From assembly GCF_003334405.1 (NCBI RefSeq), contig NZ_QOWM01000001.1: a stretch of DNA of 64,000 nt; one strand, written 5' to 3'. Numbering within the stretch: position 1 is the stretch's first letter; each line of letters opens with the position of its first letter. A program made the translations under genes and the position numbers. The stretch comes from Escherichia coli. Lineage in GTDB: Bacteria > Pseudomonadota > Gammaproteobacteria > Enterobacterales > Enterobacteriaceae. This document shows positions 819-55,339 of the stretch, in pieces. Below the pieces are notes generated by a model. The model was not told where the DNA came from, did not search any database, and saw only the letters and a program-made list of their open reading frames with translations.

Positions 819-2138
819 ATGGATGTCATGAGAAGTGTTCTGGGAATGGTGGTATTGCTGACGATTGCGTTTTTACTGTCAGTAAACAAGAAGAAGATCA
901 GCCTGCGTACCGTTGGCGCGGCGTTAGTGTTACAGGTCGTGATTGGCGGCATTATGCTTTGGTTACCGCCAGGGCGTTGGGTCGCTGAAAAAGTCGCTTT
1001 TGGCGTGCATAAAGTGATGGCGTACAGCGACGCGGGTAGCGCATTTATCTTCGGTTCTCTGGTCGGACCGAAAATGGATACCTTATTTGATGGTGCAGGA
1101 TTTATCTTTGGTTTCAGGGTGTTACCGGCAATTATCTTCGTCACCGCGCTGGTGAGTATTCTCTACTACATCGGTGTGATGGGGATTTTAATTCGAATTC
1201 TCGGCGGTATCTTCCAGAAAGCATTAAATATCAGCAAGATCGAGTCATTCGTCGCGGTCACCACCATTTTCCTCGGGCAAAACGAAATTCCGGCAATCGT
1301 CAAACCCTTTATCGATCGTCTGAATCGCAATGAATTATTTACAGCGATTTGTAGTGGCATGGCCTCGATTGCTGGTTCGACAATGATTGGTTACGCCGCA
1401 CTGGGCGTGCCTGTGGAATATCTGCTGGCGGCATCATTAATGGCGATCCCTGGCGGGATCTTGTTTGCCCGCCTGTTAAGCCCGGCAACGGAATCTTCGC
1501 AGGTTTCCTTTAATAACCTCTCTTTCACCGAAACACCGCCAAAAAGCATTATTGAAGCCGCTGCGACAGGGGCAATGACCGGGCTGAAAATCGCCGCAGG
1601 TGTGGCAACAGTGGTGATGGCATTTGTTGCAATAATTGCGTTGATTAACGGTATTATCGGCGGCGTTGGTGGCTGGTTTGGTTTTGAACATGCCTCGCTG
1701 GAGTCCATTTTAGGTTACCTGCTGGCTCCACTGGCGTGGGTGATGGGTGTGGACTGGAGTGATGCGAATCTTGCCGGGAGTTTGATTGGACAGAAACTGG
1801 CAATAAATGAATTTGTCGCTTATCTCAATTTCTCACCCTATCTGCAAACGGCTGGCACTCTCGATGCTAAAACTGTGGCGATTATTTCCTTCGCGTTGTG
1901 CGGTTTCGCTAACTTTGGTTCTATCGGGGTGGTGGTGGGGGCGTTTTCTGCGGTTGCGCCACACCGTGCGCCGGAAATCGCCCAGCTTGGTTTACGGGCG
2001 CTGTCGCGGAAACTGTATCCTTCAAGAAAGCTATATACCAGGCCCGCCATAAAACCATCGTCAGCACCAAAACTGTCTACTGTCGTATGCGCTGGCGCGG
2101 TCAGCAAAAATTGTTCTCCATCCTTTTCGCTGCAATAA
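819..2138 (+). CDS. nupX: NupC-family concentrative nucleoside transporter NupX (YeiJ); C-terminal ~45 aa atypical
   Basis: 439-aa ORF with CNT/NupC-like membrane protein sequence; the tail after the conserved LGLRAL motif is hydrophilic and overlaps yeiI on the opposite strand. Confidence 0.75.
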   Translation: MDVMRSVLGMVVLLTIAFLLSVNKKKISLRTVGAALVLQVVIGGIMLWLPPGRWVAEKVAFGVHKVMAYSDAGSAFIFGSLVGPKMDTLFDGAGFIFGFRVLPAIIFVTALVSILYYIGVMGILIRILGGIFQKALNISKIESFVAVTTIFLGQNEIPAIVKPFIDRLNRNELFTAICSGMASIAGSTMIGYAALGVPVEYLLAASLMAIPGGILFARLLSPATESSQVSFNNLSFTETPPKSIIEAAATGAMTGLKIAAGVATVVMAFVAIIALINGIIGGVGGWFGFEHASLESILGYLLAPLAWVMGVDWSDANLAGSLIGQKLAINEFVAYLNFSPYLQTAGTLDAKTVAIISFALCGFANFGSIGVVVGAFSAVAPHRAPEIAQLGLRALSRKLYPSRKLYTRPAIKPSSAPKLSTVVCAGAVSKNCSPSFSLQ

Positions 2139-2983
2139 ACTGACTCATCGGGCAAATAAACAAACAGTTGCTGAACACCTTGCTGATGCAATGCATTCAC
2201 TGCGGTATTACGGTCAGCATCGCTGGTGATCGCCTGTCCCCATAAAATTTCCAGCTCCGGTAAAGTGGGTTTCAGGGTGTGAATATGCGCCAGCCAGTGT
2301 TTGATTTTGCCCGCTTTGAATTCTGAAACGGTATCGACAAACACCGGGATTTCATCAGCGAGGGTAAAGACCCATTCCAGCGCCTCGGCTGTCAGGTTGC
2401 AATCAGCCAGTACCACGCCCGCATGACGAAGTAAATCGCGCGACCCGTTCAGTAGTTGCGGTGTCAACTGTTCCAGCAGATGGGTATCGTTAATCGCCAG
2501 CACGGTTTGATCGTCTCGATTGGCAATTGCCAGATACGTCGATGTGCTTTGACCATGCAAACGAACGCAGCCGGAGACATTCACGCCGGCACGGCGCGTT
2601 TCTTCCAGGAGCATTTCGCCATAAAAGTCATCGCCAATCACTGAAAGCAAATGGACGTCACGGCCTAACAGCGCCAGATTGTGGGCGATGTTGCGTCCCA
2701 CGCCGCCCGCTGAGCAATGAATTGTACCGGGATGAGAAGCCGATTGCGGGTAACGGATATCCGCCATCCCGCGAATATCCATATTGATTGTCCCCACCAC
2801 TACGCAGTATTCCTGCTCGGTGAGAATGTAACCTTTGCCTTTAATCCGGCCTTTGCGCATTAAATCCATAATATGCGCCGCAACGCGCGAACGGCTGATT
2901 TGCAGCATGTCCGCAATTTCGTTCTGCTGAATCAGCGGGTTACGCCGTAAAATTGCAAGGATCTCCTTTTCCCGGTTATTCAT
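1838..2983 (-). CDS. yeiI: ribokinase-family sugar kinase with N-terminal HTH (YeiI)
   Basis: 381-aa ORF; N-terminal HTH-like segment, ribokinase-type motif VDSFGADDGFMAGL near the C-terminus. Confidence 0.8.
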   Translation of the reverse strand: MNNREKEILAILRRNPLIQQNEIADMLQISRSRVAAHIMDLMRKGRIKGKGYILTEQEYCVVVGTINMDIRGMADIRYPQSASHPGTIHCSAGGVGRNIAHNLALLGRDVHLLSVIGDDFYGEMLLEETRRAGVNVSGCVRLHGQSTSTYLAIANRDDQTVLAINDTHLLEQLTPQLLNGSRDLLRHAGVVLADCNLTAEALEWVFTLADEIPVFVDTVSEFKAGKIKHWLAHIHTLKPTLPELEILWGQAITSDADRNTAVNALHQQGVQQLFVYLPDESVYCSEKDGEQFLLTAPAHTTVDSFGADDGFMAGLVYSFLEGYSFRDSARKPSWAISGARCGATAENAPTTTPIEPKLAKPHNAKEIIATVLASRVPAVCR

Positions 2984-25924: not shown

Positions 25925-27361
25925 ATGAATCGTGATTCCTTTTATCCAGCCATCGCCTGTTTTCCGCTGTTACTGATGCTGGCCGGGTGTGCGCCTATGC
26001 ATGAAACCCGCCAGGCGTTAAGCCAGCAAACGCCCGCTGCACAAGTTGACACCGCATTACCCACGGCGCTGAAAAATGGTTGGCCAGACAGCCAATGGTG
26101 GCTGGAGTATCACGATAATCAACTCACTTCCTTAATTAACAATGCACTACAGAACGCACCGGATATGCAGGTGGCTGAACAGCGCATTCAGCTAGCTGAA
26201 GCCCAGGCGAAGGCAGTTGCCACTCAGGATGGTCCGCAGATCGACTTTTCGGCGGATATGGAGCGGCAAAAAATGTCGGCAGAAGGCTTAATGGGGCCGT
26301 TTGCTCTGAACGATCCGGCCGCAGGTACGACCGGCCCGTGGTACACCAACGGTACTTTTGGCTTAACGGCGGGCTGGCATCTCGATATCTGGGGAAAGAA
26401 TCGGGCGGAGGTTACTGCCCGCCTGGGTACGGTTAAAGCACGGGCGGCGGAACGCGAGCAAACCCGCCAATTGCTGGCTGGCAGCGTAGCCCGCCTGTAC
26501 TGGGAGTGGCAAACCCAGGCGGCGTTAAACACGGTCTTGCAGCAAATAGAAAAAGAGCAGAACACCATTATCGCGACCGATCGCCAGCTATATCAGAACG
26601 GGATTACTTCTTCAGTTGAAGGTGTGGAAACCGATATTAATGCCAGCAAAACCCGGCAGCAGCTCAACGATGTCGCGGGGAAAATGAAAATTATTGAGGC
26701 ACGGTTAAGCGCACTTACAAATAACCAGACAAAGTCATTGAAGCTTAAACCGGTCGCGTTGCCGAAAGTGGCAAGCCAGCTTCCTGATGAACTGGGGTAC
26801 TCCTTACTGGCCCGGCGGGCAGATTTGCAGGCGGCGCACTGGTACGTTGAGTCATCGCTAAGCACCATTGATGCGGCAAAAGCGGCATTTTATCCTGACA
26901 TCAACCTGATGGCCTTCCTGCAACAGGATGCGTTGCACTTAAGCGATCTGTTCCGTCATTCCGCGCAGCAAATGGGCGTTACGGCAGGCCTGACGCTACC
27001 CATTTTCGATAGTGGTCGTCTTAACGCCAATCTCGATATCGCAAAAGCCGAAAGCAACTTGTCTATCGCCAGCTACAACAAAGCGGTGGTTGAAGCGGTG
27101 AATGACGTGGCGCGGGCAGCCAGTCAGGTTCAGACACTGGCGGAGAAAAACCAGCATCAGGCGCAAATTGAGCGCGATGCCTTGCGTGTGGTAGGTCTTG
27201 CGCAGGCGCGCTTTAACGCGGGCATCATTGCTGGTTCCCGCGTCAGCGAAGCCAGAATCCCCGCGCTGCGTGAGCGGGCCAATGGCCTGTTATTGCAAGG
27301 GCAGTGGCTGGATGCCTCCATTCAACTCACTGGTGCGTTGGGCGGGGGTTACAAACGCTGA
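25925..27361 (+). CDS. mdtQ: outer membrane efflux lipoprotein (OMF/TolC-like family) MdtQ (YohG), apparently intact
   Basis: ORF 25835..27361; start at Met31 gives 478 aa with lipobox LLMLAGC. Confidence 0.8.
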   Translation: MNRDSFYPAIACFPLLLMLAGCAPMHETRQALSQQTPAAQVDTALPTALKNGWPDSQWWLEYHDNQLTSLINNALQNAPDMQVAEQRIQLAEAQAKAVATQDGPQIDFSADMERQKMSAEGLMGPFALNDPAAGTTGPWYTNGTFGLTAGWHLDIWGKNRAEVTARLGTVKARAAEREQTRQLLAGSVARLYWEWQTQAALNTVLQQIEKEQNTIIATDRQLYQNGITSSVEGVETDINASKTRQQLNDVAGKMKIIEARLSALTNNQTKSLKLKPVALPKVASQLPDELGYSLLARRADLQAAHWYVESSLSTIDAAKAAFYPDINLMAFLQQDALHLSDLFRHSAQQMGVTAGLTLPIFDSGRLNANLDIAKAESNLSIASYNKAVVEAVNDVARAASQVQTLAEKNQHQAQIERDALRVVGLAQARFNAGIIAGSRVSEARIPALRERANGLLLQGQWLDASIQLTGALGGGYKR

Positions 27362-27413
27362 TGATATGCGCCTTCTATACTTAACGTTTATTCAGCGTTA
27401 AGTGGAGAACTCG

Positions 27414-28175
27414 ATGGCACAGGTTGCGATTATTACCGCCTCCGATTCGGGGATCGGCAAAGAGTGCGCGTTATTACTGGCGCAGCAGGGGTTTGATATT
27501 GGTATTACCTGGCACTCAGATGAAGAAGGGGCAAAAGATACCGCGCGTGAGGTAGTTAGCCACGGCGTACGTGCGGAGATCGTGCAGCTGGATCTCGGCA
27601 ATCTACCAGAAGGGGCACTGGCGCTGGAGAAACTCATTCAACGGCTGGGGCGCATTGATGTGCTGGTGAATAATGCGGGTGCAATGACCAAAGCGCCGTT
27701 TCTTGATATGGCTTTTGATGAGTGGCGCAAGATTTTTACCGTTGATGTCGATGGTGCATTCTTATGCTCGCAAATTGCGGCTCGTCAGATGGTGAAACAA
27801 GGGCAGGGCGGTCGCATCATCAACATTACGTCGGTACATGAACATACGCCGCTGCCGGATGCCAGCGCCTACACAGCCGCTAAACATGCGCTCGGTGGGT
27901 TAACCAAAGCGATGGCGCTGGAGCTGGTCAGGCATAAGATTTTGGTGAACGCAGTCGCGCCTGGGGCGATCGCCACGCCAATGAATGGCATGGATGACAG
28001 CGACGTGAAGCCCGACGCGGAGCCTTCGATTCCCTTGCGGCGTTTTGGCGCAACGCATGAGATTGCCAGCCTGGTGGTGTGGCTTTGTTCGGAGGGCGCA
28101 AATTACACCACCGGGCAGTCGTTGATAGTGGATGGCGGCTTTATGTTGGCGAATCCACAGTTCAACCCAGAATAG
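27414..28175 (+). CDS. yohF: short-chain dehydrogenase/reductase YohF
   Basis: ORF 27402..28175; start at Met5; TASDSGIGKE Rossmann motif. Confidence 0.9.
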   Translation: MAQVAIITASDSGIGKECALLLAQQGFDIGITWHSDEEGAKDTAREVVSHGVRAEIVQLDLGNLPEGALALEKLIQRLGRIDVLVNNAGAMTKAPFLDMAFDEWRKIFTVDVDGAFLCSQIAARQMVKQGQGGRIINITSVHEHTPLPDASAYTAAKHALGGLTKAMALELVRHKILVNAVAPGAIATPMNGMDDSDVKPDAEPSIPLRRFGATHEIASLVVWLCSEGANYTTGQSLIVDGGFMLANPQFNPE

Positions 28176-28264
28176 CGCAGTGAGGTGCGTGGATATTTCA
28201 TTGGGTAATATTTTGGTCGGCATGAAAAGACGCACAAGCGTCGTATCAGGCATGGTACTCCGGA

Positions 28265-28293
28265 TGTCGGATGCGGCGCGAACGCCTTATCCA
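28265..28293. repeat. REP-like element
   Basis: ggatgcggcgcgaacgccttatcc between convergent yohF and yohD. Confidence 0.5.
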
Positions 28294-28304
28294 GGGCAAT
28301 GGTT

Positions 28305-28883
28305 TTACGCCTGATGATCCGGCTTTTTCTTCCCGCGTCGTTTCAGCCACCAGCGCACGCCCACCACCAGAACCACGACCAGAATCAACCAGACCCAGTG
28401 CTTCAAATGCTGGTCGAGATTGTGCAACCACGGCGCAATCACCTGACCACCAGCGTAACCAATAGTGGTAAAAATCAACGCCCAGGCAAATGCGCCGAGA
28501 ATATTCAGCGGCAGAAAGATTTTCGGCGGCAGCTGGCTGGCACCAATCAGCGTCGGGCCAATCACCCGAAAGCCATACATAAAGCGCGTACCAATGACAA
28601 ACAGATACGGATGGCGTTGGATAAGTTTCTGCGCCCGCTCAATTTTATCCTGATGTTTCGAGAAACGGCGTAACAGCTTGCCGCCAAACCGCCGCCCGCA
28701 CAGATAGAGCACCTGGTCGCCAATCATGCCGCCAAGCGCCACAGAAAGTACCACCAGCGGGAACTTTAATAGCCCCTGATGCGCCGCAACGCCTCCCAGC
28801 AAAGTCACGGTTTCACCTTCCGCCAGGCTACCGATCACCAGCGCGGCATAACCATATTGTGAGATAAGTGTATTGAGATCCAT
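28305..28883 (-). CDS. yohD: DedA-family inner membrane protein YohD
   Basis: ORF 28305..28919; start at Met13 giving 192 aa. Confidence 0.85.
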   Translation of the reverse strand: MDLNTLISQYGYAALVIGSLAEGETVTLLGGVAAHQGLLKFPLVVLSVALGGMIGDQVLYLCGRRFGGKLLRRFSKHQDKIERAQKLIQRHPYLFVIGTRFMYGFRVIGPTLIGASQLPPKIFLPLNILGAFAWALIFTTIGYAGGQVIAPWLHNLDQHLKHWVWLILVVVLVVGVRWWLKRRGKKKPDHQA

Positions 28884-29052
28884 AGGCCAGTCTGTCTCCC
28901 TTTGGTTGCCAGTAAGCATACACCCTGTGAATCATTCACGCTGAAAAAGGACGTTCATCAGACAGTGAAAATTACATGGGCGAACAAAAAATAATCACAA
29001 GCTGACTTATACTTGAACTGTCAGGTTCATGAACTCACAACAAGGGGGCGGT

Positions 29053-32694: not shown

Positions 32695-34992
32695 ATGAAA
32701 TGGCTATGTTCAGTAGGAATCGCGGTGAGTCTGGCCCTGCAGCCAGCACTGGCGGATGATTTATTCGGCAACCATCCATTAACGCCCGAAGCGCGGGATG
32801 CGTTCGTCACCGAACTGCTTAAGAAAATGACAGTTGATGAGAAAATTGGTCAGCTGCGCTTAATCAGCGTCGGCCCGGATAACCCGAAAGAGGCGATCCG
32901 CGAGATGATCAAAGACGGTCAGGTTGGGGCGATTTTCAACACCGTAACCCGTCAGGATATCCGCGCCATGCAGGATCAGGTGATGGAATTAAGCCGCCTG
33001 AAAATTCCTCTTTTCTTTGCTTACGACGTGCTGCACGGTCAGCGCACGGTGTTCCCGATTAGCCTCGGTCTGGCCTCGTCTTTTAACCTCGATGCAGTGA
33101 AAACGGTCGGACGTGTCTCTGCTTATGAAGCGGCAGATGATGGCCTGAATATGACCTGGGCACCGATGGTCGATGTCTCGCGCGATCCGCGCTGGGGACG
33201 TGCTTCCGAAGGTTTTGGCGAAGATACGTATCTCACCTCAATAATGGGTAAAACCATGGTGGAAGCGATGCAGGGTAAAAGCCCGGCAGATCGCTACTCG
33301 GTGATGACCAGCGTCAAACACTTTGCCGCATACGGTGCGGTAGAAGGCGGTAAAGAGTACAACACCGTCGATATGAGTCCGCAGCGCCTGTTTAATGATT
33401 ATATGCCGCCGTACAAAGCGGGGCTGGACGCAGGCAGCGGCGCGGTGATGGTGGCGCTGAACTCGCTGAACGGCACGCCAGCCACCTCCGATTCCTGGCT
33501 GCTGAAAGATGTTCTGCGCGACCAGTGGGGCTTTAAAGGCATCACCGTTTCCGATCACGGTGCAATCAAAGAGCTGATTAAACATGGCACGGCGGCAGAC
33601 CCGGAAGATGCGGTGCGCGTGGCGCTGAAATCCGGAATCAACATGAGTATGAGCGACGAGTACTACTCGAAGTATCTGCCTGGGTTGATTAAATCCGGTA
33701 AAGTGACGATGGCAGAGCTGGACGATGCTGCCCGCCATGTACTGAACGTTAAATATGATATGGGGTTGTTTAACGACCCATACAGCCATCTCGGTCCGAA
33801 AGAGTCTGACCCGGTGGATACCAATGCCGAAAGCCGCTTGCACCGCAAAGAAGCGCGTGAAGTGGCGCGTGAAAGCCTGGTGTTGCTGAAAAACCGTCTC
33901 GAAACGTTACCGCTGAAAAAATCCGCAACCATTGCGGTGGTTGGCCCGCTGGCAGACAGCAAGCGTGACGTGATGGGAAGCTGGTCGGCGGCAGGTGTTG
34001 CAGATCAATCCGTGACCGTGCTGACCGGGATTAAAAATGCCGTCGGTGAAAACGGTAAAGTGCTGTATGCCAAAGGGGCGAACGTTACCAGTGACAAAGG
34101 CATTATCGATTTCCTGAATCAGTATGAAGAAGCGGTCAAAGTCGATCCGCGTTCGCCGCAAGAGATGATTGATGAAGCGGTGCAGACGGCGAAACAATCT
34201 GATGTGGTGGTGGCTGTAGTCGGTGAAGCACAGGGGATGGCGCACGAGGCCTCCAGCCGTACCGATATTACTATTCCGCAAAGCCAACGTGACTTGATTG
34301 CGGCGCTGAAAGCCACCGGTAAACCGCTGGTGCTGGTGCTGATGAACGGGCGTCCGCTGGCGCTGGTGAAAGAAGATCAGCAGGCTGATGCGATTCTGGA
34401 AACCTGGTTTGCGGGGACTGAAGGCGGTAATGCAATTGCCGATGTGTTGTTTGGCGATTACAACCCGTCCGGCAAGCTGCCGATGTCCTTCCCGCGTTCT
34501 GTCGGGCAGATCCCGGTGTACTACAGCCATCTGAACACCGGTCGTCCGTATAATGCCGACAAGCCGAACAAATACACTTCGCGTTATTTTGATGAAGCTA
34601 ACGGGGCGCTTTATCCGTTCGGCTATGGTCTGAGCTATACCACTTTCACCGTCTCTGATGTGAAACTTTCTGCGCCGACCATGAAGCGTGACGGCAAAGT
34701 GACGGCCAGCGTGCAGGTGACGAACACCGGTAAACGCGAAGGGGCCACGGTAGTGCAGATGTACTTGCAGGATGTGACGGCTTCCATGAGTCGTCCGGTG
34801 AAACAGCTGAAAGGCTTTGAGAAAATCACCCTGAAACCGGGCGAAACTCAGACCGTTAGCTTCCCGATTGATATCGAGGCGCTGAAGTTCTGGAATCAAC
34901 AGATGAAATATGACGCCGAGCCTGGCAAGTTCAATGTCTTTATCGGCACTGATTCCGCACGCGTTAAGAAAGGCGAGTTTGAGTTGCTGTAA
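32695..34992 (+). CDS. bglX: periplasmic beta-glucosidase (GH3)
   Basis: ORF 32623..34992; start at Met25 (MKWLCSVGIAVSLALQPALA...) giving 765 aa. Confidence 0.95.
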   Translation: MKWLCSVGIAVSLALQPALADDLFGNHPLTPEARDAFVTELLKKMTVDEKIGQLRLISVGPDNPKEAIREMIKDGQVGAIFNTVTRQDIRAMQDQVMELSRLKIPLFFAYDVLHGQRTVFPISLGLASSFNLDAVKTVGRVSAYEAADDGLNMTWAPMVDVSRDPRWGRASEGFGEDTYLTSIMGKTMVEAMQGKSPADRYSVMTSVKHFAAYGAVEGGKEYNTVDMSPQRLFNDYMPPYKAGLDAGSGAVMVALNSLNGTPATSDSWLLKDVLRDQWGFKGITVSDHGAIKELIKHGTAADPEDAVRVALKSGINMSMSDEYYSKYLPGLIKSGKVTMAELDDAARHVLNVKYDMGLFNDPYSHLGPKESDPVDTNAESRLHRKEAREVARESLVLLKNRLETLPLKKSATIAVVGPLADSKRDVMGSWSAAGVADQSVTVLTGIKNAVGENGKVLYAKGANVTSDKGIIDFLNQYEEAVKVDPRSPQEMIDEAVQTAKQSDVVVAVVGEAQGMAHEASSRTDITIPQSQRDLIAALKATGKPLVLVLMNGRPLALVKEDQQADAILETWFAGTEGGNAIADVLFGDYNPSGKLPMSFPRSVGQIPVYYSHLNTGRPYNADKPNKYTSRYFDEANGALYPFGYGLSYTTFTVSDVKLSAPTMKRDGKVTASVQVTNTGKREGATVVQMYLQDVTASMSRPVKQLKGFEKITLKPGETQTVSFPIDIEALKFWNQQMKYDAEPGKFNVFIGTDSARVKKGEFELL

Positions 34993-35066
34993 TGCTTTAG
35001 TAAGGGCGTGACATTTGCGCCCTTTGCCTGATGTTCATATCTTAACTTGCTGAATTTTCGCCCTTT

Positions 35067-35103
35067 GTAGGCCGGATAAGGCGCTCGCGCCGCATCCGGC
35101 AGG
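35067..35103. repeat. REP element downstream of bglX
   Basis: gtaggccggataaggcgctcgcgccgcatccggcagg. Confidence 0.7.
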
Positions 35104-35243
35104 AAACGCCGGACCGAATATGCCTCTTAAGTATTTATCTGATTCTGCAACTGAATCCGTCCGCTCAGGCTAATCCCGCCATTATCAACTATGCTTTTCT
35201 CTTAATTCGCTGAAAACAACAGTAAAAGAATGAGGAAAGCATC

Positions 35244-36161
35244 ATGCCACTCTCAAAGGTCTGGGCAGGTTCACTGGTTTTGTTGGCAGCCGTGAGCCTG
35301 CCGCTGCACGCGGCTTCCCCCGTTAAAGTCGGTTCAAAAATCGATACTGAAGGCGCGCTGCTCGGCAATATCATTTTGCAGGTACTGGAAAGCCACGGCG
35401 TACCGACGGTCAATAAAGTGCAACTCGGAACGACTCCTGTGGTGCGCGGGGCGATTACTTCCGGTGAACTGGATATCTATCCGGAATATACCGGCAATGG
35501 CGCGTTTTTCTTTAAAGATGAAAACGATGCAGCGTGGAAAAACGCGCAGCAAGGTTACGAGAAAGTCAAAAAACTCGATGCAGAGCAAAACAAGTTAATC
35601 TGGCTGACGCCCGCACCTGCAAATAACACCTGGACCATCGCCGTGCGTCAGGATGTGGCAGAGAAAAACAAACTCACTTCGCTTGCTGACCTGAGTCGTT
35701 ATCTGAAAGAGGGCGGCACCTTCAAACTGGCAGCCTCGGCAGAGTTTATCGAACGCGCCGATGCCTTACCCGCGTTTGAAAAAGCCTATGGCTTTAAGCT
35801 CGGTCAGGATCAGTTGCTGTCACTGGCTGGTGGCGACACGGCGGTGACGATTAAAGCCGCTGCCCAGCAAACTTCTGGCGTTAATGCCGCAATGGCTTAC
35901 GGCACTGACGGTCCGGTCGCGGCGCTGGGGCTGCAAACCTTAAGCGATCCGCAAGGCGTGCAACCTATCTACGCGCCTGCACCAGTGGTGCGTGAGTCGG
36001 TGCTGAAAGAGTATCCGCAAATGGCACAGTGGCTACAGCCAGTCTTCGCCAGCCTCGATGCAAAAACATTGCAGCAACTGAATGCCAGCATTGCAGTGGA
36101 AGGACTGGATGCCAAAAAAGTGGCTGCCGACTACCTGAAACAAAAAGGGTGGGCGAAGTAA
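35244..36161 (+). CDS. osmF: glycine betaine ABC transporter periplasmic binding protein OsmF (YehZ)
   Basis: 305-aa ORF with signal peptide; first gene of osmF-yehYXW. Confidence 0.9.
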   Translation: MPLSKVWAGSLVLLAAVSLPLHAASPVKVGSKIDTEGALLGNIILQVLESHGVPTVNKVQLGTTPVVRGAITSGELDIYPEYTGNGAFFFKDENDAAWKNAQQGYEKVKKLDAEQNKLIWLTPAPANNTWTIAVRQDVAEKNKLTSLADLSRYLKEGGTFKLAASAEFIERADALPAFEKAYGFKLGQDQLLSLAGGDTAVTIKAAAQQTSGVNAAMAYGTDGPVAALGLQTLSDPQGVQPIYAPAPVVRESVLKEYPQMAQWLQPVFASLDAKTLQQLNASIAVEGLDAKKVAADYLKQKGWAK

Positions 36162-36167
36162 TTTCCC

Positions 36168-37325
36168 GTGACTTATCTACGTATTAATCCTGTTCTGGCG
36201 CTGCTGCTGTTGCTGACGGCAATCGCAGCAGCGCTGCCGTTTATCAGCTACGCGCCTAATCGTTTAGTCTCGGGTGAAGGGCGTCATCTCTGGCAACTGT
36301 GGCCGCAAACGATCTGGATGCTGGTGGGCGTTGGTTGCGCCTGGCTGACAGCCTGTTTTATTCCCGCTAAAAAAGGCAGCATTTTTGCACTCATTCTGGC
36401 GCAATTCGTCTTCGTATTGCTGGTGTGGGGAGCTGGAAAGGCGGCGACCCAACTGGCGCAAAATGGCAGTGCGCTGGCGCGTACCAGCCTCGGCAGTGGT
36501 TTCTGGCTGGCTGCGGCGCTGGCATTGCTGGCCTGTAGCGATGCCATCCGCCGAATCTCCACGCATCCGCTGTGGCGCTGGTTGTTGCATATGCAGATTG
36601 CCATTATTCCGCTGTGGTTGCTTTACTCCGGCACGCTTAACGATCTCTCGCTAATGAAAGAATACGCCAACCGTCAGGATGTGTTTGACGACGCGCTGGC
36701 TCAACATCTGACGTTGCTGTTTGGTGCGGTGCTGCCTGCGTTAGTGATTGGTGTGCCATTGGGCATCTGGTGCTACTTTTCCACCGCGCGGCAGGGGGCG
36801 ATTTTTTCTCTGCTCAATGTCATTCAGACCGTGCCTTCGGTGGCGCTCTTTGGCCTGTTGATTGCGCCGCTTGCCGCGCTGGTGACGGCCTTTCCGTGGC
36901 TGGGGAAGCTCGGCATAGCAGGAACCGGAATGACACCCGCACTGATTGCGCTGGTGCTCTATGCCTTGCTGCCGCTGGTGCGCGGCGTGGTAGTAGCCTT
37001 GAACCAGATCCCGCGCGATGTGCTGGAGAGCGCCAGAGCGATGGGGATGAGCGGGGCGCAGCGATTCCTGCATGTTCAGTTACCGCTGGCGTTACCGGTA
37101 TTTCTGCGCAGCCTGCGGGTGGTGATGGTGCAAACTGTAGGCATGGCGGTGATTGCGGCGTTAATCGGCGCAGGCGGTTTTGGTGCGCTGGTTTTCCAGG
37201 GGCTGCTAAGCAGCGCCATTGATTTAGTGTTGCTGGGGGTGATCCCGGTAATTGTTCTGGCGGTGCTGATCGATGCGCTGTTCGATTTACTTATCGCACT
37301 GTTGAAGGTGAAACGTAATGATTGA
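36168..37325 (+). CDS. yehY: ABC transporter permease YehY
   Basis: 385-aa hydrophobic ORF, GTG start, 6 nt after osmF. Confidence 0.9.
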
Positions 37326-46762: not shown

Positions 46763-49034
46763 GGAAAACTCCCCAGTTTTGCAGCGATGCCAGTGCCTGC
46801 TGTTCGAGTTGTTGATGATGTGCAATGGCTTGTGGTGGACAATGCAACGGCATTTGCAGCGCCGAAACGGGAAGTTGCGCCAGTTGATAATGCTCAAGCA
46901 CCTGATGCGCCAGCGTCCCGCGTTCTCGTGGTGGTAGCCAGGCCATCGCCGCGCGTAAATCGGGCAGGGCGTTAATAAAATCGTCGTCACTTAGTTGATT
47001 CAAATGGCTGCTGAAACCGGCGATAAATGCCGGCTGACAGGCCAGTTGATGACGGGCTAATGCCAGCAAACCGTGCAGCGCTTCGCCGGATTGTGCCGGG
47101 AAAAACTGTGCCAGCATCGCCAGCGCCGCTTCGGCACTGGCGTTGGGATGTTCCAGACGCATCAGTGCGCCAAGAGCCGCGCCGCGATCCAGCGCCGGGG
47201 CATGAATCGCCTGACTGCGTCGCTCCAGTAAGGCTACCGCCGCAGAAAGCGAAACGCCGGGTAAATTAACGCCGCTATGTAGATCGCGCAGGATATGGCA
47301 AAGCGCCTGCCAGCTATGCAGGTGAGCGTGAAACTCCTTTTCATCCGGTTTGCCGTTGGATTCACACAGCCAGAGCGTGCGATCGATAGCCGCGCATAAC
47401 GTCGTTTGTAATATCTGCGCGCCTTGCATACCGCTAATTTCATCCAGCCGCCATAAGGCATATAGCACTTCCAGCGCCTGGCCCATTTCGGCAAATTGAT
47501 TTTCCTGGGCGATTAATAATGTGAGTTGTTCCAGTAATTGTTGACTGAAGGACGCCAGACCCGCTAACGCCGCCTGGCTAAGACATGTGGTGATACTGCC
47601 GATTCCACCCGCGTCCAGCATATCGGCTTCTAATTTATGGCGTGCGGCTTCCTGGAGTGTTGCACCAAAGCAGGCGGCCTCAATCAATGCCGCATGCTGG
47701 CTAAGTGGGCGGGTTAATTTCCAGCGTTCTTCACCGTTGCCTGCAAGTGTCAGTGTGCTTCCCTGCTGGCGTACAATCCCTGGGATCTCCAGTATTGCCA
47801 GACGATGTAACACCTGACTTTGCGCTAGTCCATTGGGGGTAAAGCGATTTAAGGTAAGCTCCGCCGGAAGAGAGATTGCGGTACGTTCCAGTTCGCAGGT
47901 GACATCTTTTGGCAGAGGCGGTTGTGGCGTAGAAGGGGCAAGTTTACCGAATCCGTCACCCGCTAATGTGTCTATCAACGTTAGCAGAATCGGATCGGTG
48001 TCGGGATGAATAACTCCGCGATAGCTCCACGGCAACGGCGCGTTCAGGGCTTCTTTAATCAGCGAGCCTGCTATGGCATCCAGCCAGTCAGTGCGTAACG
48101 GTAGTTTATGTCCGCGCAACTGTGCCAGCGCCATCGCATGCAGATGAGCGGCAGCCATATCCGCGGTCGAAGCAGGCAAGTGGTGTTGGCGCAAACGGGT
48201 AAGAACCGTTTTTAGCAGTTGTTCTCCCGCCTGCTGTAAGCCCCACTGCCAGCACCAGCTTTGCCAGACCGGGGCAGGCATTCCTGAAAGGTATCCTGCC
48301 AGCACATCAAGGCGCTTTTCACTGTAGGGTGTGAGATAACAACCTGTAACGGCATCTGCCAGCGAGGGCAATTCTGGCTTGTTAATGTCCTGCGGGCATT
48401 CGCGCCACATTTTTGCCAGTGCCGGAGCGTGCCAGCCACCGCAGACGACTAACACGTCGCCATTATTTTGCTGCACCGCCCATGCAATCCAGCGAGCCAT
48501 AAAGGCTTCGCGCTGACGATTGAGTGCATCGCCGGGGAAATCGCCCCGCAGTTGGGCAAAATAGTGCGCCAGTGCAGAGGGTAATGCAGTTTGCTGGCTT
48601 TCATCTTCGAACAAGTGATCCCACAGGTTATCGCTGTTATCCATGCGGGTGGCACGCAGCAGCAAGGTCTGGCTTTCCTCTTGCGTATCAGGCGAATCGT
48701 CCTCTTCTTCACTCTGTGCCCAGCAAGGCAAATCGATGAAGTAAGTTTGTGCCTGAATACGACGAGCGGCTTGTAGCGCCTGCCACTCCGGCGAAAATTC
48801 AGCAAATGGCGTCCAGGCACCACGCCCGGGGGCTGCACCGTCCTGATACTGGCAATAACTGTAAATAGCTACCGGAAGCTGGTGGGCTAAAAACAGTTCG
48901 TCTACCCGGTCATTAAAATCAGCCGGGCCTTCAATCAACACGTATCGTGGCCGCTGGCTTTCGATTAACGATTTCACCAGCCGGGCGCAGGCCGGACTAT
49001 GATGCCGGATGCCGACAATTAACGGCTCGCTCAT
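46755..49034 (-). CDS. yehM: large protein of unknown function YehM
   Basis: ORF 46755..49175; start at Met48 (MSEPLIVGIRHH...) giving 759 aa, 10 nt downstream of the yehL stop. Confidence 0.8.
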   Translation of the reverse strand: MSEPLIVGIRHHSPACARLVKSLIESQRPRYVLIEGPADFNDRVDELFLAHQLPVAIYSYCQYQDGAAPGRGAWTPFAEFSPEWQALQAARRIQAQTYFIDLPCWAQSEEEDDSPDTQEESQTLLLRATRMDNSDNLWDHLFEDESQQTALPSALAHYFAQLRGDFPGDALNRQREAFMARWIAWAVQQNNGDVLVVCGGWHAPALAKMWRECPQDINKPELPSLADAVTGCYLTPYSEKRLDVLAGYLSGMPAPVWQSWCWQWGLQQAGEQLLKTVLTRLRQHHLPASTADMAAAHLHAMALAQLRGHKLPLRTDWLDAIAGSLIKEALNAPLPWSYRGVIHPDTDPILLTLIDTLAGDGFGKLAPSTPQPPLPKDVTCELERTAISLPAELTLNRFTPNGLAQSQVLHRLAILEIPGIVRQQGSTLTLAGNGEERWKLTRPLSQHAALIEAACFGATLQEAARHKLEADMLDAGGIGSITTCLSQAALAGLASFSQQLLEQLTLLIAQENQFAEMGQALEVLYALWRLDEISGMQGAQILQTTLCAAIDRTLWLCESNGKPDEKEFHAHLHSWQALCHILRDLHSGVNLPGVSLSAAVALLERRSQAIHAPALDRGAALGALMRLEHPNASAEAALAMLAQFFPAQSGEALHGLLALARHQLACQPAFIAGFSSHLNQLSDDDFINALPDLRAAMAWLPPRERGTLAHQVLEHYQLAQLPVSALQMPLHCPPQAIAHHQQLEQQALASLQNWGVFHV

Positions 49035-49044
49035 GCATCTTTCC

Positions 49045-50133
49045 TCACGGCAGGCGGTGGCGGGCTTGATAATAAGCCTGCCAGTGAGCTTCTTTATGTG
49101 TGGCGACACGCTGTTCGAAGTAACGGCGCAGACGAGCGCGATCTTCTTCGTTATCTTTGACGATGGTTCCGGCAATACAGTCCACCAGGTCGGCAGGCTC
49201 CCCCGCGCGATTCGCTAAAAACCAGGCGCGGACGCCCACGGCGTGGGCCACGTTCACGGCTTCAGCCGTGGACATAATCGCTGTTAGTGTATCCATTGAC
49301 GTTTTCTTTTCGCCGTTGGCACGCAGATCGCGGAAGGTGCGGACCAGTAACTCCAGTACCGCGTCAGGCACTTTATGCGGAATACCGCTATGGGCCAGCA
49401 AACGCGCCGAAGCACTGGCGACAAGCTCCAGCTCCTGGGCGAAATCCATAATCGGAAAGACAGTTTCAAAATCGAAGCGACGCTTTAGCGCAGCACTCAT
49501 TTCATTGACGCCGCGATCGCGGGTATTGGCAGTGGCAATAATATTAAAGCCTTCTCGCGCATAGAGCTGACTGGCTTCACCAGTGAGTTCCGGCACCGTC
49601 ATCACCCTGTCAGAAAGCATGCCTAACAGACAGTCTTGCACTTCCAGCGGTGTACGCGTTATCTCTTCAAAACGGACGATTTTGCCGTCGCGCATTCCCT
49701 GGTAAAGCGGGGCAGGGACCAGCGCTTCCGTTGATGGACCATGATTGATAAGCAGGGCGTAGTTCCAGCCGTACTTGATTTGATCTTCGGTAGTAGATGC
49801 GCCGCCCTGGACGGTTAACCCGGCATCGCCGCTAATAGCGGTTGCCAGTAATTCAGACAGGAGAGATTTTGCGGTGCCAGGTTCCCCCACCAACATCAAA
49901 CCGCGTCCGGTGGCAAGAGTGACTAACATACGTTCGACAGCGGAGGGACTAATCACCACTTTACGGCTAATATTTTGCGCGCTATCGCCAAGGATAAAAG
50001 CACGGGCCGCAGGCAAACTTAACTGCCAACCGGGCGGGCAAGGTGCGTTATCATTTTGTTTTAATTTTGCCAGTTCATCGGCGTATAACACAGCAGCAGG
50101 CGGACGCTGCAGATGATTATTCTGCGGTGACAT
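49045..50133 (-). CDS. yehL: MoxR-family AAA+ ATPase YehL
   Basis: ORF 49045..50199; start at Met23 (MSPQNNHLQRPP...) giving 362 aa with aggga RBS; Walker A GEPGTAKS. Confidence 0.9.
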   Translation of the reverse strand: MSPQNNHLQRPPAAVLYADELAKLKQNDNAPCPPGWQLSLPAARAFILGDSAQNISRKVVISPSAVERMLVTLATGRGLMLVGEPGTAKSLLSELLATAISGDAGLTVQGGASTTEDQIKYGWNYALLINHGPSTEALVPAPLYQGMRDGKIVRFEEITRTPLEVQDCLLGMLSDRVMTVPELTGEASQLYAREGFNIIATANTRDRGVNEMSAALKRRFDFETVFPIMDFAQELELVASASARLLAHSGIPHKVPDAVLELLVRTFRDLRANGEKKTSMDTLTAIMSTAEAVNVAHAVGVRAWFLANRAGEPADLVDCIAGTIVKDNEEDRARLRRYFEQRVATHKEAHWQAYYQARHRLP

Positions 50134-50241
50134 ATATTCATCCCTGAAATGTATTAATGAAATAAACGATATTTTACGCGCAATAAATGTTTGGCGCATT
50201 AGTTGTTTGAGCGAAAAATATCTGGAAAGCAGATCACAGTA

Positions 50242-50327
50242 AATAAAAAAACCTGCTGGTGAGGCAGGTTCTTTTATTTACTATTTTCAGGCCTAACACC
50301 ACAGCCTGTGCAACATCGTGTTCCAAC
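50242..50327 (-). ncRNA. putative Orz-type antitoxin sRNA, copy 1
   Basis: minus-strand promoter (-35 ttgcaa 50357-62, -10 tataat as plus attata 50334-39), ~85-nt transcript ending at hairpin 50250-50270 plus U-run; 5' end complementary to zor-1 5' UTR (50474-50493). Confidence 0.5.
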
Positions 50328-50565
50328 GAACGAATTATAACCATGGCTGGACCCCGTTGCAATTAAGATAATGAGATTTATAATCCAGACCGTTGGGACG
50401 TTGCGCCGGATCGAACCTATTTCAAGTCCTGGCTACCGGACGGGTGGTGCTGCAGGTGGTGCCCTGATCCGGAGTGCAACATCGTGGTCCAACATACGTA
50501 AACCAGTATCGACAGGCAGTGTAAGGGTAAGGTGCTGGTGTTGCGCTCCTTAATAAGGAGAGCGG

Positions 50566-50655
50566 ATGGACACGCTGACACAAAAGTTAACCGTGCTCAT
50601 TGCTGTACTGGAGCTATTAGTAGCTCTGTTACAGTTGATTGATTTGTTGAAGTAA
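50566..50655 (+). CDS. 29-aa Zor-like type I toxin peptide (MDTLTQKLTVLIAVLELLVALLQLIDLLK), copy 1
   Basis: SD aggag 6 nt upstream; plus promoter -35 50357-62 and -10 tataat 50379-84 gives a ~175-nt 5' UTR; terminator hairpin 50679-50701. Confidence 0.7.
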   Translation: MDTLTQKLTVLIAVLELLVALLQLIDLLK

Positions 50656-50851
50656 CGGGCAAATTGAAACGCATCTAAGGGGGAAAACCGCTTCCCCCTT
50701 TAATAAAATGATTACTGTTTTTATTAATTCATCATATAACTCATGTTTATTTATAAGTTCATCGATTTTATATTCAACGCACCATTTGACCGGGATGTGA
50801 ATATTTATGGTGGGCTATTGGCAAAAAATATCTGGAAAGTAGATCGCAGAA

Positions 50852-50935
50852 AATAAAAAAACCTGCTGGTGAGGCAGGTTCTTTTATTTACTACAGTGAC
50901 GCTAACTTGCTGATTGTGCAACATTTCGTACCAAC
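50852..50935 (-). ncRNA. putative Orz-type antitoxin sRNA, copy 2
   Basis: same architecture as copy 1 (-10 as plus attata 50942-47, -35 ttgcaa 50965-70, terminator 50860-50880); 18-nt stretch gcaacatttcgtaccaac matches zor-2 5' UTR at 17 of 18 positions. Confidence 0.5.
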
Positions 50936-51173
50936 GAATAAATTATAACCATATCCACACTCCATTGCAATTCAGTGAATGAGATTTATAATCCTGCCCG
51001 TTGGGAGGTTGTGCCGGATCGGACCAATTTTAAGTCCTGGCTGCTGGACGGGTGGTGCCGCAGGCGGTGCCCTGATCCGGAGAGCAACGTTTCGTACCAA
51101 CATACGTAAACCAGTATCGACAGGCAGTGTAAGGGTAAGGTGCTGGTGTTGCGCTCCTTAATAAGGAGAGCGG

Positions 51174-51263
51174 ATGGACACGCTGACACAAAAGTTAATC
51201 GTGCTCATTGCCGTACTGGAGTTATTAGTGGCTCTGTTACGGTTGATTGATTTGTTGAAGTAA
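51174..51263 (+). CDS. 29-aa Zor-like type I toxin peptide (MDTLTQKLIVLIAVLELLVALLRLIDLLK), copy 2
   Basis: SD aggag 6 nt upstream; -10 tataat 50987-92; terminator hairpin 51287-51309. Confidence 0.7.
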   Translation: MDTLTQKLIVLIAVLELLVALLRLIDLLK

Positions 51264-51316
51264 CGGGCAAATTGAAACGCATCTAAGGGGGAATACCGTT
51301 TCCCCCTTTAATAAAG

Positions 51317-51637
51317 CTATTTTTCTATTTGTTGGATGAATATATTCTGTAGTTCACGATTAAAAATTGCTATTACAGTTTCAGGTGATTCACCTCGTAA
51401 TTTCCGCTCATCAATACACTCATCTCTTATATAAATCAACGCATCATTTATTAGCGGGTCAGCATCTTCTCGATCACGTTGATGAAATGTTGGATGTAGC
51501 CGGAATCGCTCCAGTCGATAGACGGAACCTGTAAATAATTCAGAGCATTTATGGATCTCAAGTCTGAAGGAAAACGGATCTTCAGGTACAGGGACCTCAT
51601 AATCGTAAATAGCAACCAGCTCTTTTTGCACGATCAT
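51317..51637 (-). CDS. yehK: protein of unknown function YehK
   Basis: 106-aa ORF 60 nt downstream of yehI on the same strand. Confidence 0.75.
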   Translation of the reverse strand: MIVQKELVAIYDYEVPVPEDPFSFRLEIHKCSELFTGSVYRLERFRLHPTFHQRDREDADPLINDALIYIRDECIDERKLRGESPETVIAIFNRELQNIFIQQIEK

Positions 51638-51697
51638 CGCTTTCCCCGCTGGTAAGTCGTGTTAATAACGGGCAGTTGCATCACTGCCCGCTGTGTT

Positions 51698-54600
51698 TTA
51701 ATGGAAAATGACGTCAGGTGCGCTTAACGCCTCACTCAAATCAAACACATCAAGTTCGGCAAAAGTGACGGATTTATTGTCACGGTACACTCGAAGAGAA
51801 CGGAAGCTCATTAGCGCTTTGCTATCAACATTGTAGTGGTTAAAACCGGGTGAAAACTTAAGGACCAGCCGGTACTCACCCAGGTCATAGACAAATGCGT
51901 CCTCATAGCCTGACTCCCAGCCTTTGTATCGCATTCCCATAAGTTGCCCAACGGTAGCGGATTTACCTTCCCAGCGAGTCAGGCTGTTACTGGTTGACTC
52001 GTCAGGTGTGAGCAGCACCGTGCGGCGCGACAACTGGCGAAAAGGCGGCATAATTTCGTAATCGGCAAAAAGCTGTGCAAATTCACTGCGCATTTCTGCT
52101 GTCATTTCTAACGGGTGGGCAATGCCAATCAGAGCATCCGCAGGAAGGTCAATGGGCTCATCCTGCGCATTGCAGAACTCCCCCTCTGCGGCCACACGAA
52201 AGGCGTTGAGTAAACGACGCGGTTCATTTGCCGGATAACCCCCCCATATTAATCGCTGGGTAACCAGGCGGGTAAAGGGATGATTAACAAACAGAGAATG
52301 AAAATCTGCCAGCGACCAGCGTCGGGTGGTACGTAGGGCAGCTTCAAGACGCGGGAGCAGGTTTTTGCTCACCTGAGTAGCATCTTTTTTTAGCCCTTTT
52401 AGTCGGGCCAGTGCCTCGGGCGCTTTCAGTTGATCGTCATCGGCACGCAACCGGGGAACACTTTTCTGGCGAACGTTTTGTTGATCAAAGATAACCGGGT
52501 TGAGGTTTTCATCGAAGCGAACGGTAAACTGCCGGGGACCAAAATCAAAAATCAACGCCTGCGGATCATCAAGACCCAGTGTTGGGACTAATCTGTCCGC
52601 TAACTCTTCCTGGCTTAGCCCGCGATTTTCTGCGACCACCTGAAGAAATTCCGCTGCGTTTTCACGTAATGAAGAGGATTTCGCCCGTTGTGATACATGA
52701 TGCAGCTGTATCAGCGCCATATCATTATTCATCAAGGTAAGTATATTCAGACCAATGACAGCACGGGCAGATTTGCCTTCTTGTGGCCAGGCGAGGATCT
52801 GTGTCGTCAGATCCCGAGCCGTGCTTTCGTCACCAAAGAGACTTAACGCCAGAAATGCCCAGTTGTCTTTTGCGGGGGCACCAGCTTGTTGCCACGCAGT
52901 GAAGAGATCCCAGGCAAAAGCGGCCAGCGTTTGTGGCTGGCAAAACGTTTTCAGTTGTTCCAGCCCGCTATAAAAACGTCCCCCCTGGGTAAAGCGCAGC
53001 ATTTCGCCGATAATTTCCAGAGCGTCATCGGTAACAGGCTGATTATTAGTGATAAGTCGAGGCCTGGACCACATTGCCGGATGCCAGAAATCAGGGGCTT
53101 TTGGAATGCGTGCCGGGTAAATGTCCATTGGACCCTGTTTCAGTAATTGTTCCAGGGCAGGCCATACATCTTTACGCTGCCAACGATTGGCTACAGTTTG
53201 TAGCAATTCGCCATGCCCATGTTCGTAAAGTAAACGCAGGGCAAGTAATGCAGCTTCGCTATTATCGCTGGATTTGGTGAAGACAAGAGGGATAAGTGCA
53301 GTAGCCGTATGTTCCGGCCAATGTAAAATCCACTGGCGAGCCAGACCACGCTGCACCGCGAAACGTCGCCAGACGCGGGCAACGGGCAGGGCCAGTTCTG
53401 TTGCGCCAAAATTTAAAATTAACGGAAATGTTTCTTTTGGACGATGTGAAAAAGCCAACATCAGACCTGGTAGCGCATCCAACCCGAGGATACTAAGAAA
53501 ATAGTCCTCACCCGCGAACAGATGTTTTTTCTCATTGATACGCAGCCAGAAGGTCAAAGCCATCTCACGCGGCAACTGTGCCAATAAATACAGGTTCCAG
53601 ACACTCTTTTCCGGACGATAACGTGAGTAGTTGTCATTTTCCCATATGTTAATTAACGCTTCTATGTGACCGCTGCGGAGCGCCTGTTCTGCTAATTGTG
53701 CTTCCGGGGAGTTCCAGCCATTCAGGATCTCTTCAACCCGCCCCTGGTAGTAATGCCACTGAACAATGAGTGAATTGCGTGCAGCATCCAGTTTTCCGGG
53801 GAGTATATAATTCAGAAACAGCCATACATCATCCCCAAAACCCAGTTCCTGTAATACAACTCGCCCACTTTTTTGTTCCATGCGTTCCGCAAGAGATTCC
53901 GTGCTGAAATAACGGGCAGACTCAGTGGAGGCAAGCCTCTCTTGTTCGCCTGGTTGCCAGTAAACTTGCGGGGTTAATTCGAGCGGTGCCAAATCAAGAC
54001 GTGGAGCTGTCATTTTTTTCTTACTACGCCACGGTGGTGAAACGAGGATTTCAGGCAGATTGCTGTTATCGGTGCCATCAATAACCGGTTTGGGCGGTGC
54101 CAATAAATAACTATTCAGTACTGCCCGGGCTTGAGTACTTAACCACTGCATCACCTCTTCTGCCAGTTGTGGCTGCGATGCCATCAGCGTTTGTAACAGC
54201 GTACGCCAGTATTCATCGCGTGCTTTTTGCTGGGCAGGCAGCTTTTTGTCTTCGATGATTGGATAACCAGGGCGGGCTGGTGGTTCTTTTAACGCCAGCA
54301 GTTCTGCCAGTGCCGCGAGCGTCGCGTGGGGGAAGTTTTTACTGTATTTAGCCACACGTTGCAGGCTGGGTTTGTTTTTATCAGCCACCAGTAGCAAGGT
54401 GTGGATGACCTGCGGATGGTTAATTTGTACCAACAGACTGCCGCAATCTTCTTTATGGGCATACATCGCGAGGCGCGGAATGGCTGCCAGTCCTTGTTCG
54501 CGCAAAAGGGCGGCGCAGGCCGCGTAGCCGAAGTGGTTTTTTTGTGACATGTAGCTGGCTTCGCGATCGCTAAATACGTCCAGGCCCCAGTATCGTTCGA

Positions 54601-55330: not shown

Positions 55331-55339
55331 GCTCTTTCC

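Follow-up and report, generated by a model that had tools for sequence, protein, structure and literature searches.

The intact mdtQ (yohG) gene of an Escherichia coli isolate, a predicted TolC-superfamily channel gene that is frameshifted in K-12

Escherichia coli has three outer-membrane factors (OMFs) besides TolC, which are CusC, MdtP, and MdtQ, the last of these formerly called YohG (PMC11762307, a 2025 review). MdtQ is named among the acylated E. coli OMFs, whereas TolC is not a lipoprotein (bioRxiv 10.1101/2025.03.19.644130), and the identity between MdtQ and TolC amounts to 12% (PMC11762307). The mdtQ gene is encoded independently, the function of its product has not been elucidated, and the gene is regarded as core-conserved despite its pseudogene annotation (PMC11762307). 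The only phenotype reported for mdtQ in two papers (PMC11762307, PMC9241588) is that null mutants become slightly more sensitive to puromycin, acriflavine, and tetraphenylarsonium. The K-12 neighbour of yohP is called 'the mdtQ pseudogene' in a 2025 paper on YohP (PMC12719787). An intact mdtQ as opposed to the K-12 frameshift is already known and documented in the literature, and the window described here adds one more intact copy to the thousands in databases. The reported yohG phenotype is said to come from Sulavik 2001; if the mutants used there were K-12 strains, it cannot come from full-length MdtQ.

The window, a stretch of 64,000 nucleotides of E. coli DNA, contains the genes dusC, yohP (on the minus strand), mdtQ, yohF, yohD, yohC, pbpG, dld, and bglX in the standard order of the E. 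coli core. The mdtQ gene occupies its orthologous position, with the same order in K-12, O145:NM, TB06053, and Salmonella. The Citrobacter gene is found at the same locus (dusC...yohD-yohC-pbpG-dld) but without yohP and yohF. The features of the locus are as follows.

25618..25701, minus strand: yohP, the divergent upstream neighbour, a 27-aa small membrane protein (translation, annotation in identical genomes).
25842-25877 and 25890-25909, plus strand: two conserved upstream blocks, candidate promoter or regulatory sequence of mdtQ (E. coli-Salmonella alignment).
25925..27361, plus strand: mdtQ coding sequence (full-length match to NF008524, two Pfam OEP domains, annotation of identical DNA).
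25925..25990, plus strand: putative lipoprotein signal peptide, codons 1-22, ending in L-A-G-C (translation).
26072..26076, plus strand: A5 homopolymer run, the site of the K-12 frameshift (alignment and simulated K-12 product).
27349, plus strand: synonymous K-12 difference at Gly474, GGT in the window and GGG in K-12, T to G (alignment).
27414..28175, plus strand: yohF, an SDR oxidoreductase gene, 52 nt downstream of mdtQ (translation, annotation, terminator scan).

A TRIP1c repeat lies in the dusC-yohP intergenic region at approximately 25289-25561, 43 bp past dusC (yohI) and 363 bp before mdtQ (yohG), and this repeat is reported to mediate rearrangements of the chromosome in roughly 2% of genomes (PMC10888264). 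The 86-aa open reading frame at 25287-25547 on the minus strand is probably a chance frame within the repeat.

In the list of open reading frames and in the translation, the mdtQ frame is open throughout, from the ATG at 25925 to the TGA at 27361 on the plus strand, giving 478 codons and a stop. The ATG at 25925 can be taken as the start because the MdtQ model is matched over positions 1-478 of 478, because RefSeq annotates identical DNA in the same way, and because the Salmonella and Citrobacter orthologues are 478/479 aa long. A mechanically called frame of 508 aa starting from the TTG at 25835 was rejected, since it is the ATG that agrees with the equivalog model and with the lengths of the orthologues. 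Genomes with identical DNA (O145:NM FWSEC0002 and TB06053) annotate the product as WP_001078139.1. Several unrelated complete genomes carry the 1,901-nt stretch containing mdtQ at 100% identity, and the intact frame is therefore not a read error. The N-terminal translation is MNRDSFYPAIACFPLLLMLAGC, in which the signal peptide MNRDSFYPAIACFPLLLMLAG is followed directly by the cysteine of an L-A-G-C motif at residues 19-22. The longer motif LLMLAGC spans residues 16-22, with Cys22 as the lipobox cysteine and Ala as the +2 residue, and G21 and C22 are invariant in the Escherichia, Salmonella, and Citrobacter orthologues.

The K-12 gene (b2139) is annotated as a pseudogene in MG1655 (NC_000913.3) and as 'frameshifted' in the RefSeq record of W3110. 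An alignment with W3110 and O145:NM showed that K-12 has A4 where the window has A5 at 26072-26076 (codons 50-51, AAA AAT), and the K-12-type pseudogene allele is thus not the one found in the window. The simulated K-12 product consists of 50 native residues (through Lys50) and 19 aberrant ones before a stop, 69 aa in total, and K-12 cannot make the MdtQ channel because the A4 frameshift leaves only this stub. Over 4.9 kb centred on mdtQ, the window and K-12 differ at two positions, and the gene itself is identical at 1,435 of 1,437 nucleotides. Because only six positions differ from MG1655 across 1994-33241 and the mdtQ base is the sole indel in the 33-kb aligned block (1994-35026), the window comes from a natural strain very closely related to K-12, in whose lineage the frameshift arose recently. 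Over 25 kb, the window is matched best by isolates from the environment, animals, and humans rather than by laboratory strains. The initial annotation had described an uninterrupted 478-aa mdtQ frame with the lipobox LLMLAGC and had stated that MG1655 carries a frameshifted pseudogene. The first two points agree with the translation, and the third is confirmed by the RefSeq annotation together with the A5-to-A4 lesion, the aligned K-12 copy being neither intact nor identical to that of the window.

The distribution of the two alleles was examined in complete E. coli genomes. DNA of mdtQ was found at a coverage of at least 80% in 5,407 of 5,426 genomes. A 90-nt probe for the K-12 A4 allele matched exactly in 355 of 5,412 genomes, and the corresponding probe for the A5 allele of the window matched exactly in 3,042. 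Every one of the 60 A4 genomes listed is a K-12 or laboratory strain or matches a K-12 derivative in chromosome length; they include MG1655, W3110-type lines, DH5alpha, DH1, C600, J53, NCM3722, AG100, and others, and the single strain given without a source has a chromosome of nearly the length of that of J53. Among the sampled A5-probe matches below 100% identity, the differences are substitutions without change in length, except in two derivatives whose names or chromosome lengths are K-12-like. A spread sample of 40 mdtQ matches comprised 36 without net indel, two K-12 copies, one IS insertion, and one deletion, and this tally of disruptions covers the matches listed.

Six divergent alleles, with DNA identities as low as 97.5%, came from strains of human, poultry, and environmental origin and from ST131 and O157:H7 strains; all are 1,437 nt long and annotated as intact. 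Together with an identical O145:NM copy and the window, they make eight sequences, seven of them distinct, all intact, 1,437 nt long, and without indels. Their pairwise Nei-Gojobori dN/dS ratios range from 0.03 to 0.12, with dS up to 0.11 and dN of at most 0.008, which indicates that mdtQ is under strong purifying selection. Orthologous proteins are 94% identical in E. albertii, 82% in Salmonella, and 80-82% in Citrobacter. As judged from these comparisons, the intact gene is the ancestral, selected, and near-universal state in E. coli, and the frameshift a mark of K-12. The suggestion in the initial annotation that the intact gene is a strain marker has the direction reversed, because an intact mdtQ is the norm of the species and says only 'not K-12'. 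Its further suggestion of a possibly functional gene is favoured by the low dN/dS ratios and by the retention of mdtQ across genera.

The family membership of MdtQ was assessed with profile models. The protein belongs to the MdtQ equivalog family NCBIfam NF008524 (PRK11459), with 1024.4 bits against a cut-off of 650 over 1-478 of 478 positions, and to the NodT family of OMFs (TIGR01845), with 274 bits against a cut-off of 210 (residues 16-475, model positions 4-460 of 460). The Pfam OEP domain (PF02321) occurs twice, at residues 69-266 (E 2e-17) and 293-473 (E 1e-12). The scores of MdtQ lie under the cut-offs of the MdtP, CusC, AdeK, and TolC models. For the MdtP family (NF007390), residues 17-477 match with 356 bits and an E value of 2.7e-106, and since this is below the cut-off of 597, MdtQ is a paralogue of MdtP rather than MdtP itself. 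The match to the TolC family model (TIGR01844) gives 54 bits (E 1e-14) against a cut-off of 225. In a sequence search of the PDB, the best solved relative is VceC (1yc9), with an E value of 1e-39 and residues 51-477 aligned to residues 19-438 of the chain, followed by OprM, CmeC, SilC, CusC, OprN, MtrE, and OprJ; the CusC match (3pik) has an E value of 2e-21. An AlphaFold2 model built on a shallow alignment of eight sequences, which were close MdtQ orthologues of 80-98% identity, reached a mean pLDDT of 39 and was discarded. Collectively, these matches place the predicted product of mdtQ among the OMFs of the TolC superfamily, in the NodT lipoprotein subfamily.

The segment 25925-27361 is very probably an ordinary wild-type allele of the core gene mdtQ, which would encode a channel of the TolC superfamily and from which K-12 has lost one A; the way in which the channel would serve as an exit duct is inferred. 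The MdtQ precursor would be exported and then acylated on Cys22 of the LAGC lipobox, which is the predicted first residue of the mature protein. According to the Lol sorting rule, the +2 residue of a lipoprotein decides whether it is destined for the outer membrane, and the Ala at this position predicts that acylated MdtQ would be sorted there. In a TolC-like fold, three subunits together build a 12-stranded beta-barrel and, in the periplasm, an alpha-helical tunnel. MdtQ would likewise trimerise, with a beta-barrel as the membrane pore and alpha-helices lining a long periplasmic tunnel. The trimer would then engage a periplasmic adaptor and its inner-membrane transporter, both encoded elsewhere, thereby completing an exit duct across the envelope.

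The partner of such a duct cannot be read from the genomic context because no adaptor or transporter gene is a neighbour of mdtQ; none was found within approximately 6-12 kb of the gene in E. coli, Salmonella, or Citrobacter. The missing pump linkage is nevertheless compatible with membership of the OMFs because tolC is likewise unlinked. The downstream gene yohF is a context gene and not an efflux component, and its position after mdtQ is kept in Salmonella, whereas yohF is absent in Citrobacter. Co-transcription of mdtQ and yohF is possible because the two genes lie 52 nt apart on one strand with no predicted terminator between them. The nearest characterised relatives of MdtQ are MdtP, of the MdtNOP system, and VceC, of VceAB, and for this reason an EmrA-type adaptor with a non-RND pump might be the likeliest class of partner, a guess that we offer with low confidence.

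Disrupted or shortened forms of mdtQ are also found outside K-12. The gene is interrupted by IS421 in strain 600055, and in MRE162 an IS1 stands in place of mdtQ-yohF as an IS1-associated deletion. E. coli proteins of 420, 435, and 454 aa carry in-frame internal deletions of 24-58 residues and are still annotated as MdtQ, the 435-aa form being present on 43 contigs. An explanation of the 435-aa entries as reinitiation calls in K-12 was rejected, since they are in-frame internal deletion variants. In S. Typhi and Paratyphi A, too, mdtQ has been truncated, in independent events (PMC9241588). The frameshift in K-12, the IS insertion, the deletions, and the truncations mean that mdtQ is dispensable in some backgrounds.

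The region upstream of mdtQ bears on whether the gene is normally expressed. No clear Shine-Dalgarno sequence was seen before the ATG. A scan for the sigma-70 consensus upstream of mdtQ on the plus strand returned only 25602-25629, and a promoter and terminator scan of 25240-27500 gave site counts equal to the shuffled expectation, with nothing convincing 5' of mdtQ. An Rfam scan of 24000-29000 gave no match, and no inverted repeats were found in the intergenic DNA upstream of the gene. Salmonella has nearly the same sequence in the two blocks (25842-25877 and 25890-25909), whereas the remaining intergenic DNA is diverged or carries an insertion, and the blocks may be regulatory for mdtQ. The apparently weak translation-initiation region and the lack of a consensus promoter directly upstream fit an alternative in which mdtQ is intact and conserved but cryptic or rarely expressed, contributing nothing to normal drug efflux and being kept for another selected role such as the export of an endogenous metabolite or of a substrate specific to certain conditions. 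This alternative is also in line with the slight phenotypes and the function that has not been elucidated, with the major efflux load being carried by TolC according to the review (PMC11762307), and with the repeated tolerance of mdtQ loss in K-12 and other lineages. However, the dN/dS ratios of 0.03-0.12 and the maintenance of the gene in Escherichia, Salmonella, and Citrobacter point to selection for the protein, and the Salmonella-conserved upstream blocks suggest regulated expression. We therefore consider the alternative a tentative one that deserves perhaps a third of the weight; it concerns the substrate rather than the channel mechanism, and in this respect it overlaps with the reading of mdtQ as a wild-type channel gene.

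Far less probable is that the open frame is a non-functional remnant which mutation has not yet disabled. The gene is dead in K-12 without obvious cost and has been lost sporadically elsewhere, as such a remnant could be. However, dS reaches 0.11 while dN stays at or below 0.008, the eight alleles (seven distinct) contain no indels, and orthologues of 80-82% identity stand at the same locus in other genera; the remnant is disfavoured because neutral decay would not give low dN, an absence of indels, and conserved orthologues. It is exceedingly improbable, even by comparison, that the extra A is a sequencing or assembly error, for although a single-base homopolymer difference from K-12 is a classic site of error, the A5 run is exact in more than three thousand complete genomes and the sampled non-K-12 matches show no indel there, full-length MdtQ of 478/479 aa is encoded in diverse phylogroups and in E. 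albertii, Salmonella, and Citrobacter, and the 355 genomes with A4 are, in the 60 listed, K-12 or laboratory lines or K-12-like in chromosome length.

Beyond the mdtQ locus, the window differs from K-12 in several other places. At approximately 1994-2009, 264 bp of MG1655 (NC_000913.3 2252690-2252953) are missing between the 10-bp direct repeats ACGGGCGCTG. The deletion takes the intergenic DNA together with the stop codons of nupX and yeiI, two convergent genes whose open reading frames consequently overlap in antisense (1838-2138). The genes concerned here and in the yehH region are as follows.

819-2138, plus strand: nupX, 439 aa, compared with about 416 in K-12.
1838-2983, minus strand: yeiI, 381 aa, compared with about 362 in K-12.
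55340-58372, minus strand: equivalent of yehH, DUF4132, intact, 1010 aa; K-12 annotates yehH as a pseudogene.
58385-62185, minus strand: a second large DUF4132 gene, intact, 1266 aa; the K-12 interval has only the short yehF (825 nt).

None of the 5,426 complete E. coli genomes matched a 121-nt probe across the nupX-yeiI junction in one piece, and in TB06053, otherwise the closest strain, nupX and yeiI are both intact. The deletion is either private to the strain of the window or an assembly error. The yehH region (55340-62185) is a second K-12 lesion that is absent from the window strain. The intergenic region between yehL and yehK (approximately 50200-51316) exceeds its MG1655 counterpart by about 0.9 kb; it contains no open reading frame of at least 90 aa, and no annotation is given for it in TB06053. 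Furthermore, the divergence from MG1655 jumps at 33242, inside bglX (approximately 32695-34992), where dense substitutions begin. The identity between the window and MG1655 is 97.4% over 35055-50422 and 95.0% over 51318-56732. The position near 33242 thus resembles a boundary left by recombination, with a K-12-like segment on one side and a diverged segment on the other.

The intact state of mdtQ in most of the species has consequences for how the gene is studied and annotated. K-12 is a natural mdtQ null, and K-12 efflux studies and knockout collections are therefore uninformative on MdtQ. The label 'pseudogene' should stay with K-12 and not be passed on to other E. coli. If mdtQ encodes a channel as proposed above, natural isolates may have a working fourth exit duct for specific pumps, most plausibly EmrA-type systems, although we hold this to be somewhat doubtful. 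Should it be true, some TolC-independent export or resistance in wild strains would have been systematically missed, because K-12 has been without MdtQ for as long as efflux has been studied in E. coli.

The locus can finally be compared with the known systems. The K-12 pseudogene (b2139) shares its locus with the gene of the window and differs from it in having A4 instead of A5. The non-K-12 MdtQ proteins, namely WP_001078139.1 and the O157:H7 protein (UniProt Q8X659) used in the review (PMC11762307), represent the same gene at the same locus, dusC-yohP-mdtQ-yohF, and one O157:H7 allele differs from the MdtQ of the window by three amino acids. MdtP (YjcP) is the closest E. coli paralogue family, and MdtP and MdtQ are both lipoprotein OMFs of the NodT type. 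MdtP is reported to have the same three-drug phenotype as MdtQ (PMC11762307), whereas mdtP lies within the mdtNOP operon together with an adaptor and a pump and mdtQ is encoded alone (PMC11762307 and the gene context). VceC of Vibrio cholerae, which serves the VceAB pump, has its OMF architecture in common with MdtQ and is a distant relative from another genus. The vceC gene is encoded together with its pump genes, and VceC partners the EmrAB-like VceAB. TolC and CusC belong to the same superfamily as MdtQ. As with MdtQ, TolC is encoded apart from its pumps (PMC11762307), and mdtQ would in this respect be, like tolC, an orphan duct gene standing apart from any pump.
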